Source of the DNA: Isurus oxyrinchus
Lineage: Eukaryota
Assembly (NCBI GenBank): GCA_026770705.1
Contig: JANJGN010000018.1
Span: forward strand, 80,166,001-80,230,000
DNA: 64,000 bases
Direction of reading: 5' to 3'
Below the pieces are notes generated by a model. It did no database searches. It worked only from the letters and a program-made list of their open reading frames with translations, and was not told the DNA's origin. The first letter of the stretch is position 1; the number at the start of each line of letters is the position of its first letter. Below are positions 56,001-63,915 of the stretch, in pieces. Position numbers and translations under genes: made by a program.

Positions 56001-57290
56001 TGTTCTGCTCTATAAGGGATCATGTGGAGCTGTGAGCAGTGTTGTACCTTTCCTTGAGTTCTGAGGGCAACTCACTGGCGACATCAGCCAGCGTTTCAGT
56101 GGGTCTTCCTTATCCCCAAGCAGCCATCCCTGCAGACGTAACGGCCCCTCGAAAATCTCAGGCACCTGGGAGTGACTCAGAGTGTAGGAGTCATAGTAAC
56201 TCCCAGGGCACCATACATAAATGTTCAGTATGTGCTTCCAGTGATCACACGCCAGTTGTACATTGATAGAATGGTAGCCCTTGCAGTTTTTAAATATTAG
56301 GGGTTGCTGCCATGGAGCCTGCATAGCCACATGGGTGCAGTCTATTGCACGCTGCACTCTTGGGAAGCCTGAGATGGCAGCAAAGCCTGTGAATCTCACA
56401 GCCTGGCCATCTTCATCCAGAACGAACCTGACATAATGATGGGCCTTCCTGCAAAGGGCATCTGTGACGTCCTTTATACATTGTCGCGGACTGAGAGATG
56501 CCACACAGGTGGCCTGTTGATCCTCAGAAAGAACCAGAGGCCAAGAAATTGAGTGTAGTGGTCACCTTCAAAGCCATTGGCAGGGGATACCCTCCAACTC
56601 CACTTGGCATTAGGTCTTCATGAAGAATGCAGCATATGTGATGTATCAGGTCTCGGGACAAGCGCAGATGTGCACGGCATTGCCTCTCACTCATTTGTAA
56701 ATAGGAGACTCTTGGATGATAAACCCTAGGTCTGGTGATTCGCCCCAGTTGTCTGGGTCTCTTCTCCTGACGCTCCTGTTCATGCTGTAGCTCCACTTGA
56801 CCATGTCCCTCAGGTATGGCCTCCTGTTGGAACTGCATGTGGAATCACCTCTCCATCCTTCCCCTCCTCCATTGTATTCAGACCCTGACAAAGGCAGCAT
56901 TGAGATCTGAATCCATATGTGCTTTTGCCTTCTCTCTGAAAGGAAACATTGAAGACATTAACTATTCAAGGGGCAGGAAAACAATGCTCAGAAGATGAAA
57001 CGTATAGAAACAGTAAGAGTCCATAGCTCTTCCTGCCCTACTTGCATGTTGCTGATGCCGCCTTGTCCATGAGACACTAGTACACACATTGAGGTGACCA
57101 AGATGATATTGCAGATAAGTAACATCTTGAGCCCTGTGTGGGATGCTGAGGTTTAATTGAGATGAGTGACCCAACCTAGCTCTGTGCTCCAATCTCTGAT
57201 GTGGCATATTAATGACCAATCAGTTGCTCAGTGCGAATGAATGCATGTCCTTTGGCCCATTAGGAGCATCACATCTGGCGAACATGTGAC
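53088..57290. mobile_element. Degraded autonomous-type Harbinger: Myb/SANT gene (+, ~53289-55000) convergent with DDE transposase (-, ~55700-56900)
   Basis: Left TIR GGGCGGAATTTT. ORF 53289 AWKTVAEQVSSAATHAQSATQCRKRMNDL. ORFs 56010-56504 (GFPRVQRAIDCTHV...KGYHSINVQLACDH...WLLGDK) and 56524-56838. Right end not located. Confidence 0.85.
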
Positions 57291-57774: not shown

Positions 57775-58284
57775 TGTTAGGGGGAAATAAAGGAATACAA
57801 TAATGGTCAAGGGACTTGACTTAAAATATCCCAGCATGCAAAACCACACTTGCTAAGTAGTTAACATTTAAAGTTCAGGCTGGGGCAGAGAGAATGCTGC
57901 ACTTTGTACACCCTCAGGGTTTGCAATCACCAGCAAAGTCCTGGGAGTTAGCCTAGAGTCAGAGGGTAGCAATAACATAGATTAAGTGTGCTCTTCAACA
58001 GATAGGGGAAGGACAGATGGTCCCAGCATAGATAGGAAGGCAGGTCTCTGCCTGGGTGAAAGTAGGGTTACTTTTGTACCAGAGACCCATCTGTTTAATG
58101 TAAACCTATATGTTGATGAGATAATGATGAGATCAATAATGTATAAATATGTTGAATACTTGTAGTTTAGCAGAGTACTGTCTCAAGCTGCATTGAGATG
58201 GTGCCCTCCTTGCAATTGCTCGAATAAACGATCGTAACCTGTACCTGAGTCTCCTGTGGTCCATTCATCAAAGACACCACAACA
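57775..58284 (+). repeat. 5' LTR of an endogenous retrovirus
   Basis: Ends TGTT...AACA, TATAAAA at ~58142 and AATAAA at 58223, immediately followed by a PBS. Confidence 0.82.
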
Positions 58285-58286
58285 AT

Positions 58287-58304
58287 TGACGTAGTCGGCA
58301 GGAT
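58287..58304 (+). promoter_or_regulatory. tRNA-Ser primer-binding site; candidate major splice donor GG|GTGAGT at ~58340
   Basis: TGACGTAGTCGGCAGGAT matches TGGCGTAGTCGGCAGGAT (complement of the vertebrate tRNA-Ser 3' end) at 17 of 18 positions. Confidence 0.85.
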
Positions 58305-58679
58305 ACTTGGATCGGATCCTCGGCACGGCTCTGCAAAGCGGGTGAGTATATTTATTTACCATGCATAGTTAGTGCAGTAGGCCTACCCAAGAACGGTCCG
58401 ATCAAGTATTAAAGTATCAAAGAATCAAGAGGAGGACTCAGGACAGGAAATAGGAGGCACAAATGGTAATAGGTGGAGCCATGCAGGTGGGCTAGTGGGG
58501 CCAAAGCCGTGCAGGAAGGCCAGACCATTACCCAGTTGAGAGGAGGCAGAGCCGTGCTGGCGTGGTTACAGTTTGAAATATAACCGTAGCCAAAGCCGCG
58601 CAGGAAGGCCAGACCCCTGTTAAACCATGCATACATTCCTCAGATAACTAAGTTGTTGGGACCATGTGAACATATCGTA

Positions 58680-59640
58680 CAGAGATAGATGAAAAAATAG
58701 GAATCAAATGCTGTCAGGGAAACAAAATGGGGCTATGGAACTCGACTGGGGAACCACGGACTCCATTACGAGGTTCATAGCGGAACAACAGTCAAAATTA
58801 ACCACTAAAAGGCAGAAGGAGGGGTGGAACCCACAGGGAATCCCCGGAGAACAAAAAAGGTGGTGGTTAGAGCAAAAAAAGGATAAGGAAAAGAAAGGGA
58901 TGATGGTTATTATCACACTGTATCTACAGTTGTGCAGATGGGTTAATACTAAATTCCAGTCGATTAGAGAGAAAGAAACAAAGTCAGATCCAGGGAGGAT
59001 CAGAACAGTGGTGGCAGCAGCCTGCAGAGACACTGATCAAGAGGGAGAAAGCCTCCGAAGGAGAAACCTATGAAGGAGCTGAGGCAGTTCCGCCCTCATA
59101 TGAGCCAACCGCCCCAATGTGCCCATTGAATCCTATGGCCCCTATAGCAGTAACCGTTAGGAAAAGTAAAGTCAGGAAAGGCAAATTGAAACCCAAAAGG
59201 AGAAAGGGGGGCTGAGGAATAGGGGGAGGATGAAGAGATTGAGAGGGTTACGGAGAAAGTTAAGCACGTACCATTCAGCCCGAGGGAGAAACAGGTTTTG
59301 CTTAAAGAACTGCTGACACTTAAAACTCGGCATAAGCCAGATTTTTGGACCAAACTGCAGGAAATGCAAGATTTCCATGCAATGCACCCCCATGATCCCA
59401 GGGGATATTTGGGGAAGATTACCCCTGCAGTTTAGGAGTGGAGACTGGGTGAAACCTGAGGATATCCCAGACCAGGAGAAGGCAACAGACCTGCACAGGG
59501 AGCTTGAGAGGGCAGTCAAGGAAGCCTTGGGGGATGGAGAAACAAATTGGGGGTGTATAATGTCCCATGCGGGATGACGAGATTTTCCTGAAAATGTGGA
59601 AGGATAATTGGGACCTGAAAGGTCCACTACTCAATTTTCT
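58680..59640 (+). pseudogene. Degraded gag-like region of the ERV
   Basis: Lies just after the PBS. Broken ORFs 58708-59073 and 59377-59577 include KHVPFSPREKQVLLKEL and ALGDGETNWGCIMS, which look capsid-like. Confidence 0.55.
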
Positions 59641-61679
59641 GTAACTTAAAAAAATGAATTGATCTAAATTACAAGAGCTGCTTGTGCTGGAGAGAGAGCG
59701 TGAGTCAAAGAGAGAAAAGGGGCATACCCCTAGGGGAGTTAATAAGCACTCCCAGGCAGGGGAAATGTGAGCTTTGATAGTTTGATTGTCCCTATAGGTG
59801 GAGCCTTCAAGATCCCTTTATTTCCCCCGCTGCTATTTGAAGTTTCGTTTAGAATATGAGAGTTTTAAGTCGTTAATTTAAGGATACAGGAATATAAATA
59901 CGTACTTCTAAATGTATGTTTGTTTGTGTGCAAGAAAGCATTTGTATGTAAGCTTTAATGTGTTTTCTTCTAGAAATTGTTATTTGTGTGTGCAGTTCAG
60001 CACTTTAGGGTTGAAAACCCCATGTTAGATTAAAGGAAAGGTATACTAAAGCATTCCAAAGTTTTGAGTATAAGGTTTGAGTTGAGATTTCTGGCAAAAA
60101 GGGTTGCAACTTGAAGGTATCATGAAGCTAGACAGGGTTAGATGAACCAACCTTTGTACCACCCCCTTTGCAGATTAGCATCACCAACTTCCAAGTTGAT
60201 TGGGATTGATATATACGAGTTACATTAACTCATACGAGTTAAAATTCTGAAATTCTGAGGGGAAAAATTACCTGAAGTTCAAGAGATTCTAGGAAAACCA
60301 AAAGGAATAAACACATGGTCTAGGTGGTTCCTATGGATAAAAATCTTTTGATGAGATGAATTAAATATGAAAGGAAATCTGCATCCCAACAGCACTGTAA
60401 TTTGAATTTGGGACAATCTTGAGGTGTAAAGTGCAGTATAGTTTAGAAGATTACTTTTGAATCAGCAGGATGCTATCTAAGATAAAGAATGTGTTGATAA
60501 ACATACGGGAATTATAACTTGGATACAAATCAATACACATAAGAAAGAGGTAGTTTTAATTTTGGTAGTGTAAATTACAGTTCTTACAAAGTTTAAAATT
60601 TGAGGTTTGGTTCGTGATGATTTCTCAAAAGGGAATTTTCATTTTAAAAGGTTTGACAACAATTGACACTAATTCAAATGCTGCAAGCTTTTGTATTTGT
60701 AAGTCTGTTCCCAAAATGTGAAGCTAAGCTAAAGACCTTGACAAAGTTTGGCAGAAATACAATTTTTGGCCGAGTTAATGAATCTGGGATAATTCTGAAA
60801 GAAACAGGTCAGACACAGTTTAGTGGTTACTTTTGAGACAATAAAATGTTGTTTGAGAAGAAGATAAGGAACATGTCAATGTCTAATTTCTGTTTTTAAA
60901 ACTGTTATGAGAATACTTTATTTATTTTAAAGTCCCTCCAAGTAACCTGAACAAGATAAGATGGTAGCTGTTGCATGTGTAAAATGGTATGAGGCAAGTA
61001 AGAGAATGAATTAGGGAAAGAGGACATAATGTACAAACTGTTTTAAGGGAAATGAATTTGATAATCTGGCCATCAACTGAGGCATTGGAACTGCACAGGG
61101 GGAGATAAGCAAAGATCTAGAGACAGAGATCCCTGTTGAAATGGAATAGTTAATATGGCCTAAAGAGTAAGGAAACATTTTAAACAATCAAGACAATAGA
61201 GAAACTGAACTCAAGAGAATCTTAGGATGGTCATGGTCAGGAAAAAAAAACTTAGGGGTAAAACTATTCAGAATCTGTAGTTCAGGAATTGAAATGTAAA
61301 GAGAAATAATAATTAACAACAATTTACCACAAGATGGATACAGGTAAAGGGAAAGCTGGAAAAAGGCTAAATAGATGTATTACTGATTATATTAATGTGC
61401 CTGCGAGCTACAAAAAGTAAGACCACAGGATTAACACCTTGATGACAGGCAGAGTTAAGCAGTTCCCAGAGAGAACCATTACTGGAAGTGAAGATACTGA
61501 GCCATTGAAAGATGGGATAAGAAGGTGCATTGTTGAGTTGTTTAAGGAATTGAGGTCTGACATGAGACAGCAGCAGGAGAGAGTAAACTGGAAGGAGTGG
61601 GGGTGCCTACCCAGATGGATTCAGAACAGGGAACTCATTTCACAGGAAGAGTCATTAAAGAAATGTACAAATTTAAATA

Positions 61680-62040
61680 TAAACAGAAATTCTACATTCC
61701 CTACCAGCCACAGAGCTCGGGGATGGTGGAAAGGATGAACTGAACTTTTAAAAAAAAATCAATCACAAAAGCAATTCAAGAGACAGGGAACAGCCCAATA
61801 TTCTAATGTGCCTTAGGGGCTACCCCAAGCAGGACCGCCAGGTTCTCCCCATTTGAAATAATAACAAGGAGAGCAATGCAGTTACCCGAGGGAATCATAG
61901 TAGTAGTGGGAGATGTAGGACCACTAAAAAGGAAGGGTGCGAGACTATGTGAGGGAAATAAGTAAGCAATTGCATGAGTTAAGGAAGGAAGTCAGAAACC
62001 AACAGGTGATTAAAGATATGGAAACAGGCAAATCCAAAGA
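61680..62040 (+). pseudogene. ERV integrase core / C-terminal fragment
   Basis: KFYIPYQPQSSGMVERMN...ILMCL/ATPSRTARFSPFEIITRRAMQLP. Confidence 0.8.
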
Positions 62041-62089
62041 GTAACAATTGACCAAGCAGTAACCTGGAGGACGGGAGCCGACGTTAATG

Positions 62090-63865
62090 TCTCCACAGAT
62101 CTACGATCCTGGTCATGGGCATATCAGTACTCAACAAGGTCGGGGATGATCACTGCTCATCCCGCTCCACAGGAGGAACTTTGGCACAGCATGAACAGCG
62201 CCGAATGCAACATGCAATGGGGAATGAAAAATGTAACAGTAGGAGAACAAGTGCTTTCAAATTGTAGTAAGGGTTTGCTTCAGATCAGACATGGGAGGTC
62301 CACCCAAAAGAAAAAATTAGTACCACTACCCAGCCACCTCCCACACCTACTTCCACAGTCCGAGTAGAGATAATTGAAGCCTTTCAGTCCACACCGACTG
62401 ACCCACATTGTCCAGGACCGATGAATGGTTTGGTACTGGTTAATCAGAGGTTTTATATGATAATGTACACCATGAGCTGGTACTCGTAGTCTTGAACATA
62501 TCCAGTATTGCCCTGCCCCAGTGGTACCCAACCCACACCCAATCACTCTATAGAGCTCTGACAGGCCAGCTGATGGCTGAAGCGGTTCAGTTTAACGGCG
62601 GGATGCGATCAGGCCCAGAGGGGGACCGAGACAAGCGCAGCCTGATAAAAGACGCTGCCACGTTATTCAATACAGGGACATCAATAGTTAATTCCATTGA
62701 CCCAGCAACTGTTGATCAGAAGATCTGTACCCTGAGCTTTAAGCTTAAGGAGATTTTAGGGCGGGGACAGGGGATCCCGGATACACAATTAAATACAGAC
62801 CAGGACGTGACACGGTTAATTCGAAGCCTGGCTACTGTGCTTGAAAGTTATGCAGGGACTATCAATAAATTAACTGAGAAAGGGAAAAATATTTCAGGCG
62901 AAGCGAGCAGAAATGATTTTTGCAGCACCTATGGATCTTGGGCTTTGGAACAAGCCTGAGAGAATTTAAGACAGATTAATGACGGGGTAGTTCCTTTATG
63001 GGTAACTAATGCGCATTTATTGAATCTCTCACAACACAAGCATCATGACTTGACCGGTTGCCAGCTCAAAGGTTTAACGCATGTATATAGAATGAATGTC
63101 GAATATATAGTGAATAGTAATAAGCTAATAGGCATTGTATTAGTAATACCTGTCATACCTATGTCAACACCCGGCAGGACATTATATAGAGTAGAAAATA
63201 TTGGGGTTATACGGGGAGATTACTATATTAAGTATCACAATATTCCGCCATACGCAGTAGACATAGAAGGAAATATAGTTAGCACCACATTAGGAGGGTG
63301 AAGCATAGAAGTCACTGCAGTAGTATGTGCATATCCGATATATGAGACGGAGGAAGCAAAGTGTGGATTTAAAGCAGCCACAAACTGTACAATGGAATAC
63401 TATATGAGTTGCAAAAGAACCGATCCATGTTGCATATACAGGGAATGGGAGATATTGTATCACCACGTGGCAGGTAAGAATCCAGTATTGGGGTAACCAG
63501 ATATGCCCCATCCATAATCATTCAGTGTGCCTACATCCATAGGTGCCAGCAAGGATGGGGAAGGTGGAACTGGTTGAAATATACAAGAAAGGAATGACTA
63601 CTATTCAGGTCAAGGAAAGCCTTAAGGATAACCTGACAGTATTTGAACCTGTTCTCCTATGAAATTCCCCAATTATCAGAGCATCTCACCGCAATTCGGA
63701 GACAGGCTGAGCAGATATACAGAACTTACTATACACTGCAGCAACAGGTTAGACCTTAAAGACGGATATTGAACAAATAGATTCTTCAACATGGTGGGAG
63801 GATCTGTGGCACTGGGGCTCGAATGTACAGATACACCTCTGGATTCGGATTATCTCCCATGCTCT
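62090..63865 (+). pseudogene. ERV env: class I fusion protein resembling paramyxovirus F / spumavirus TM (lokiretrovirus-like); disrupted and 3'-truncated
   Basis: Furin site RDKR|SLIKDAATLFNTG (~62640), heptad region, IGIVLVIP...LYRVENIG, Cys-rich VVCAYP...KCG...NC, GNGRYCITT and Trp-rich WWEDLWHWG. Confidence 0.75.
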
Positions 63866-63915
63866 CGATCTTGGGGTTACAAACCCAGTACCATAACCAC
63901 TCGGCCATTAGGGAG
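63864..63915 (-). mobile_element. tRNA-like SINE head fragment at the env breakpoint
   Basis: Minus strand reads TAATGGCCGAGTGGTTATGGTACTGGGTTTGTAACCCCAAGATC: an A-box plus an anticodon-arm-like segment, with no T-arm. Confidence 0.5.

Follow-up and report, generated by a model that had tools for sequence, protein, structure and literature searches.

A pol-deleted endogenous retrovirus of Isurus oxyrinchus from a family with a predicted F-type envelope and a favored basal class I polymerase, and two candidate domesticated envelope genes

Introduction

Lokiretroviruses are defined, in the available part of PMC7947760, by a reverse transcriptase (RT) that is sister to that of all retroviruses and by an RNase H that groups with that of foamy viruses. 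The envelope protein (Env) of foamy viruses shares the fold of the paramyxovirus and pneumovirus fusion (F) proteins and is placed in class Ib in the accessible text of PMC11468914. For walleye dermal sarcoma virus (WDSV) as well as walleye epidermal hyperplasia virus (WEHV), Env has been called distinct and recent, with a gamma-type ancestor (PMC9967133, as far as its available text goes), and a survey of env genes in fish and amphibians was, in the part of it available, made with gamma- and beta-type queries only (bioRxiv 2021.11.23.469661). Here we describe an endogenous retrovirus (ERV) in a 64,000-nucleotide stretch of the shark Isurus oxyrinchus (assembly GCA_026770705.1, contig JANJGN010000018.1, positions 80,166,001 to 80,230,000 of the forward strand; "the window"). 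We consider it quite probable that this element is a dead, pol-deleted copy of a family that combines a basal class I Pol with a predicted F-fold env, and that two env genes elsewhere in the genome have likely been domesticated by the host.

Results

The window element and its subfamily

The window copy is an ordinary dead provirus. An earlier note made from the window's sequence had listed a long terminal repeat (LTR), a tRNA-Ser primer-binding site (PBS), a splice donor, a gag-like region, an integrase and env, and all of these were recovered by LTR, PBS, motif and homology checks:

57775..58284, plus strand: 5' LTR, with TG...CA ends, matching the two LTRs of sister proviruses at 69-88%
58142 and 58223, plus strand: TATA-like box and polyadenylation signal, respectively, in the 5' LTR (motif scan)
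58287..58304, plus strand: tRNA-Ser PBS, one mismatch against the expected 18-mer
58340..58347, plus strand: major splice donor consensus, presumably used (motif scan); the copy on contig C40, described below, has the same consensus
58690..59620, plus strand: broken gag, 70-85% identical to sisters in DNA and stopping short of the zinc knuckles that pol-bearing sisters have
59621..61560, plus strand: AT-rich segment (35% GC) that replaces protease, RT and RNase H and marks a non-autonomous subfamily
61561..62000, plus strand: broken remainder of integrase, from the C-terminal portion of the catalytic core (integrase matches)
62090..62295, plus strand: 5' piece of env with the signal-peptide region and the start of the N-terminal domain, 67% identical to residues 15-69 of the unbroken sister
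62289..62641, plus strand: Pro/Thr-rich linker and F2-like segment of env, with the furin site RDKR at its end and one internal frame break
62642..63872, plus strand: F1-like ectodomain of env, with internal stops and frame breaks, 80% and 60% identical to the unbroken sister

The 15-nucleotide core of the PBS had 140 exact complements at the 3' ends of the genome's tRNA genes, compared with 0 for a reversed control, and four of the five loci fetched were called tRNA-Ser. A zf-CCHC Pfam match (E = 3e-10) was found in the Gag of a pol-bearing sister. The integrase remnant matched solved integrases (E = 1e-6), and the intact Pol of a relative (P0057) could be aligned to the window over 20 integrase residues only. 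No protease, RT or RNase H was present in the window element; the ~1.9-kb segment found there instead had no match in pol-bearing copies or in 29 reference retroviral records. No 3' LTR was found in the 3 kb beyond the end of the element at ~63872. The env region (~62090-63872) consists of four pieces with stops and frame breaks and is cut where the transmembrane helix begins. After its 5' piece, ~94 codons are missing from the N-terminal domain, and all six subfamily copies checked have the same gap. Its F1-like part retains a fusion-peptide region, a long helix, beta domains, a second helix and a Trp-rich membrane-proximal part.

A search of the 4.98-Gb genome with an env piece gave 129 matches among the 123 scored of 3,389 candidates. 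All 40 candidates scored for the AT-rich segment matched it (at 82-91%, the window itself aside), which puts the subfamily at no fewer than 40 copies, and five full LTR pairs within it had Kimura two-parameter (K2P) distances of 0.029-0.085. Because the subfamily is defective, with no protease, RT or RNase H and an incomplete env, and yet has spread to dozens of sites, it was most likely copied in trans by helper proviruses, with env as a passenger. Pol-bearing sisters, e.g., L034, are 82-87% identical to the window in DNA across leader, gag and env, and for this reason the Pol of the sisters was used to represent that of the window.

Predicted envelope fold

The envelope was modeled on an unbroken env of the window's own family:

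G000:C40:8928251-8930431 (L022:3251-5431), minus strand: env of 724 codons with 0 stops (C40 env)

Its product has a hydrophobic N terminus, a domain of ~180 residues, a Pro/Thr linker, a furin site at residues 281-284, an ectodomain of ~400 residues and one transmembrane helix near residues 693-711. The motifs and the RDKR site quoted in the earlier note from the window are present, and the long post-furin ectodomain that it described holds for the unbroken copy as well. The pre-furin part, which it took to be natively short, is 284 residues long in the unbroken sister, the window copy being gapped there, and the F2-like portion is only the last ~80 residues ahead of the furin site. The absence of CX6CC was also confirmed, since neither this motif nor CxxC occurs in the unbroken sister Env and both were found in a gamma-type control; the pattern used for the immunosuppressive domain (ISD) missed that control too and is therefore uninformative on the ISD.

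The model of C40 Env (35-row alignment; mean predicted local distance difference test score [pLDDT], 58; predicted TM-score, 0.37; residues 1-197 not resolved) predicts a paramyxovirus/pneumovirus F fold. In a Foldseek search of the PDB, the top match was F of respiratory syncytial virus (RSV; E = 7.7e-11), 233 matches had E values of 0.001 or below, and the rows listed were all paramyxovirus or pneumovirus F proteins, with the match to F spanning residues 210-668. Ranks 1 to 7 in VIA were all F-type (Z = 10.8 to 7.8); F of Newcastle disease virus was first (Z = 10.8; 362 aligned; root mean square deviation [rmsd], 18) and foamy virus Env was fourth (Z = 8.9; rmsd, 7.0). Matches in BFVD included lispivirus F, baculovirus F, and the Envs of WEHV-1 (4e-10), WDSV (2e-9) and feline foamy virus (2e-5). 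A class Ib core, with beta sheets and a helical bundle drawn from both subunits, was seen in the predicted model only.

Profile comparison agrees with the model and, being independent of it, likewise argues for the F-like Env that had been proposed for this element. A shark-frog env profile matched the record that we take to be WDSV (L056, from its length and gene layout) at 96.5% (E = 7e-10; 466 columns) and foamy virus at 93.9%. The gamma-type score was 6.7%, reversed controls reached at most 0.5%, and the direct comparison of foamy virus with WDSV Env gave 1.2%; a second run kept the same order of scores. The record of snakehead retrovirus (SnRV) scored 53% (L051, taken as SnRV from its gene layout and its 10,688 nucleotides, the length given in the available part of PMC12193657). 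For the Env of WDSV and WEHV, hitherto unexplained, the matches would provide a predicted fold and a set of relatives.

Two further observations concern the model. Rank 3 in BFVD, among the best structural matches, went to a filovirus of fish, Wenling thamnaconus septentrionalis filovirus, with its glycoprotein (E = 1.9e-12). An Ig-like N-terminal domain was considered but did not gain adequate support for this family: the single-sequence model had a pLDDT of 30, the Atlas lead was only 0.76, and the V-set match was weak (E = 0.045) and confined to one relative (P0034).

Polymerase lineage

The favored placement of the family's Pol, from sequence comparisons, is at the base of the gamma- plus epsilonretroviruses (class I). 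In the tree of whole Pol, the family joined these two groups at 98/97, outside their common branch, and RT plus tether supported the same grouping at 88/96 and 94/91. In an RT-plus-tether tree that contained gypsy outgroups and a single Loki-like Pol (P0070), the family fell inside crown retroviruses (100/99). The approximately unbiased (AU) test rejected a clade with P0070 (p = 0.0006) and an exclusive clade with WDSV and WEHV (p = 0.0012). All nine PDB matches of the RNase H of pol-bearing sisters were to murine leukemia virus (MLV) or xenotropic MLV-related virus, and none was to foamy virus at E = 0.01, from a library that included foamy virus chains with RNase H; an RNase H tree likewise did not support a grouping with foamy viruses. 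Rows were thinned ahead of the trees (19/72 for the RT core, 15/39 for whole Pol and 8 in the later RT tree), and rows with no usable domain were left out of the RT-plus-tether and integrase/RNase H trees. When proteins were searched with an alignment, gypsy proteins of great length were all that came up. The earlier note had named two outcomes that would count against its proposal, an Env of gamma/epsilon type and an integrase inside described shark epsilon- or spuma-like ERVs; these apply by half, in that Pol is class I and epsilon-like in the broad sense, but Env is not of the gamma type.

The same genome holds a second ERV family with an F-type env (L107, L108 and L109, on contigs C4, C8 and C10), whose env is 30-34% identical to C40 env. 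By RT, this family falls with coelacanth elements and not within class I (100/98), and several of its copies have only 1-3 stops in the matched env.

Two candidate domesticated envelope genes

The surmise that intact, probably co-opted env copies might exist elsewhere in the genome was borne out at two loci. At the first, C40 env, in a region near histone H1 and H3 genes, sits within a decayed provirus whose LTRs differ by a K2P distance of 0.161 over 417 sites (~16%). Over 817 codons, the pol of this provirus contains 12 stops, whereas its env has none, and all 33 other copies that were aligned to C40 env carry 1-10 stops and 3-29 frame-breaking gaps each. At 8% divergence ~7 stops would be expected, and the probability of finding none is 0.0004-0.0006 before frameshifts are considered. 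The ratio of nonsynonymous to synonymous change (omega) was 0.15 (0.11-0.20) for env versus 0.46 (0.34-0.60) for the pol of the same provirus, with synonymous distances of 0.21 and 0.24 (additive three-way distances); in five of five other proviruses the env omega exceeded that of pol. Compared with its nearest paralogue (88% identical and broken), the C40 branch had an omega of 0.19-0.22 and the paralogue branch one of 0.52-0.66. The fusion core and anchor were under the strongest constraint (0.08-0.18) and the N-terminal domain under the weakest (0.47).

The C40 locus and its flank were also found, in pieces, in two runs of a second organism (organism B). In run X3, 64 of 2,274 positions outside env differed, compared with 2 of 290 in one env piece (p = 0.03) that was at single-copy depth and was taken as orthologous. 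Overall, differences amounted to ~2.8% outside env and 0.7-0.9% inside it (8/918 over both runs, from pieces filtered at 97%). No RNA set was among the matches to C40 env, and short pieces in two presumed RNA runs resembled paralogues, so this search is uninformative on expression. An absolute date for C40 was dropped, because a K2P distance of 0.161 corresponds to ~37 million years at a mammalian rate and to 10 times that age under the shark rate that the available part of PMC4422223 assumes. Taken together, the sequence patterns make it likely that C40 env has been domesticated by the host.

The second locus came from a search with a Chiloscyllium protein:

G000:C11:34566576-34568870 (L101), minus strand: solitary unbroken F-type env of 739 codons (C11 env)

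It was the only unbroken frame that this search returned, the next best match being 55% and broken. C11 env is identical to Chiloscyllium punctatum GCC29952.1 at 634 of 739 residues (86%), without gaps, over the whole length and with 19 shared Cys residues, and it keeps its furin site and anchor. No gag or pol match was found in the 50 kb around it and no long direct repeat nearby, and its paralogues, at 65-81% DNA identity, are dead. Given the 105 amino acid changes, 6.7 stops would be expected (P = 0.001). Because C11 and C40 env are only 27% identical, they would represent separate captures. C11 env likely has been domesticated as well, and it is the strongest candidate for domestication in this genome.

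Other copies, relatives and neighboring features

Named relatives in env or RT came from Heterodontus, Mustelus, Chiloscyllium, Pristiophorus, a skate and frogs, which, together with the fbxo15 matches given below, points to a likely elasmobranch host. The full-length frog relatives comprised one in Pelodytes (P0014) and a 16-member cluster in Mantella (the P0041 cluster), the size of which suggests a young family. Four env-less gag-pol copies (L029, L030, L031 and L041) were clustered on two small contigs (C44 and C59) with branch omega values of ~1 or above, which suggests that they were duplicated after death. Six proviruses of the family (L025, L027, L028, L032, L037 and L038) carried other inserted retroelements. 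Fragments of env also occurred inside predicted host proteins (P0001, P0002, P0024 and P0031; Heterodontus fbxo15 and Niban-like and cadherin-like proteins of Pristiophorus), either as annotation artifacts or through exonization. The 5' part of fbxo15 had many stop-containing matches over several contigs, like a processed pseudogene, with fbxo15 matches to Heterodontus at 78-79%. Upstream of the window's LTR lies a broken Harbinger-type transposase (DDE_Tnp_4, positions 56010-56844, minus strand; Pfam E = 9e-12).

Discussion

From the anatomy of the element, reverse transcription would have been primed with tRNA-Ser and Env would have been made from a spliced RNA. Anatomy and model together suggest that furin would cut at RDKR to yield an N-terminal subunit, composed of the ~180-residue domain (probably receptor binding), the Pro/Thr linker and the F2-like segment, and an F1-like subunit that would refold into a six-helix bundle and thereby fuse membranes. 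Selection would have held env open at C40, in the window's family, and at C11, a distant relative, and the rest of each provirus would have decayed or vanished. In the host, the likely role would be either to block receptors against related viruses or to fuse cells with one another.

Several points weigh against this account. The fold model comes from the C40 copy rather than from the window, and its confidence is only moderate; whole-chain TM-scores were low (0.28 by query length) and rmsd values high; Z scores below ~13 can occur for helical proteins; and neither Pfam, including PF00523, nor the PDB sequence search gave an F match for env. The window has no RT, so that its placement rests on the sisters, and the best PDB match of its integrase was foamy virus. 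The integrase tree, which the earlier note had suggested, gave a polytomy, and the RT core tree alone did not resolve the placement. The AU test retained a sister position to SnRV (p = 0.12-0.23) and one to foamy virus (p = 0.066). The Loki-like side was represented by a single row (P0070), labeled by eye from motifs in a supplement and ending before integrase, which in lokiretroviruses is related to CGIN1. At C40, filtering at 97% identity biases the organism B env differences low, only three of the six listed fell at third codon positions, and the branch omega covers time spent as a virus too.

These points have to be judged together with other explanations. The earlier note had placed the element in a lokiretrovirus lineage within a chondrichthyan. 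According to the available part of PMC7947760, lokiretroviruses have an F-like Env that carries an RxKR site; a stretch of Loki Env shown in the supplement, compared by eye, resembles the shark Env near the fusion peptide; and the published screen, with 0 of 6 positive, covered only six chondrichthyan genomes. Having an F-like Env does not in itself identify a lokiretrovirus, however, because the Envs of foamy virus (PMC11468914, as available), of WDSV and WEHV and, weakly, of SnRV match too, and with an MLV-type RNase H, an RT that stands apart from P0070 and the AU rejection of a common clade, the Loki assignment fell and is now very improbable. We consider it quite unlikely that the family belongs instead to the SnRV clade (Huo) or to a foamy-related lineage rather than to basal class I. 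The SnRV record had the top RT score among named viruses (39%), foamy virus gave the best PDB match for RT, and neither grouping was rejected by the AU test; against this, the trees of whole Pol and of RT plus tether favored gamma plus epsilon, the integrase remnant scored higher against WDSV and WEHV than against foamy virus or SnRV, and the RNase H is not of the foamy type. Gag, moreover, has CCHC knuckles, which foamy virus Gag is not known to have.

The env frames might also not be domesticated, C40 being a chance survivor or a late env patch in an old provirus and C11 a recent horizontal acquisition. With ~3,400 candidate copies, an occasional lucky survivor is to be expected; recombination can exaggerate LTR divergence; and C40 has a cut 3' LTR, so that its target-site duplication is unreadable. 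This explanation is nevertheless fairly unlikely, given that C40 env has a broken nearest paralogue with no more than 88% identity, that both frames lack the approximately seven stops expected, that organism B shows less divergence in env than in the flanks, and that C11 has no LTR or pol nearby. A more serious possibility, though one that we still hold short of probable, is that a class I lineage acquired its F-type env late through env swapping, in which case it would be uninformative on the ancestral retroviral envelope. Incongruence between Env and Pol is common in ERVs of fish and amphibians (bioRxiv 2021.11.23.469661, available part), and Hogan and Johnson inferred a gamma-type ancestor for epsilonretroviruses (PMC9967133, available part). 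Swapping has to contend with the F-type env on the second, separate Pol lineage of the same genome and with F-type env on WDSV and WEHV, foamy viruses, lokiretroviruses and probably SnRV, that is, on most of the deep branches sampled.

Tentatively, and with less than even confidence, we raise the broader idea that the F-type fusogen was the ancestral retroviral envelope, that lokiretroviruses, foamy viruses, SnRV, WDSV and a number of lineages in sharks and frogs kept it and the gamma type replaced it later elsewhere, and that sharks domesticated an F-type env at least twice, once early enough to be shared with bamboo sharks. Sharks have several modes of live birth. If this broader idea is true, the candidates would be syncytin-like or antiviral host genes with a fold unlike that of the known gamma-type captures. 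The question bears on the first retroviral envelope, for which scenarios were left open in the available part of PMC7947760 and a gamma-first view was taken in that of PMC9967133. The shark-frog profile links the Envs of WDSV and foamy virus, which miss each other directly, and a survey with gamma- and beta-type queries only, such as that of bioRxiv 2021.11.23.469661 in its available part, would overlook the F-type class. The main value of the present analysis lies in an F-type Env on a putatively basal class I backbone and in two specific, virus-derived candidates for host genes of sharks. Our literature searches revealed neither a shark class I ERV described with an F-type Env nor a shark env described as captured, although Wang and Han 2020 (177 co-options), Calcraft 2024, Wang, Chen and Cui 2023, and supplements may already include these loci or the link between WDSV and F.

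Among chondrichthyan ERVs, lineages II and III of CmiERV (Han 2015; PMC4422223) resemble the family in an epsilon-like Pol and a downstream env; the comparison is by description, the available part of that source does not give the Env type, and the shark family may overlap these lineages. With lokiretroviruses it shares an F-like Env, an RxKR site, a signal peptide and one transmembrane helix, but its RT lies inside crown retroviruses and its RNase H in the MLV group rather than in the foamy/Loki group. With foamy virus Env and the F proteins of paramyxoviruses and pneumoviruses it shares a predicted core built from both subunits, at 9-16% identity; unlike these, the shark Env has one membrane anchor together with a cleavable-type signal peptide, and unlike foamy virus Env, it has a separate N-terminal domain before the F2-like part rather than the foamy insertion. 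WDSV and WEHV are similar in having a class I Pol, an MLV-type RNase H and an Env without CX6CC, and theirs is the closest named Env match. The shark family differs from them in that it branches before the gamma/epsilon split rather than forming one clade with them, its Env has 724 rather than ~1,200 residues, and no cyclin-like accessory frames were noticed in it, although none were specifically searched for. Finally, the two candidate genes resemble captured env genes such as the syncytins, percomORF and a teleost env (PMC12813294, available part) in being single unbroken env frames under apparent purifying selection whose proviruses decayed or vanished. Those genes are of the gamma type with CX6CC and an ISD, whereas the shark candidates are F-type, and their nearest precedent may be a co-opted foamy element of geckos (PMC6669660, available part).

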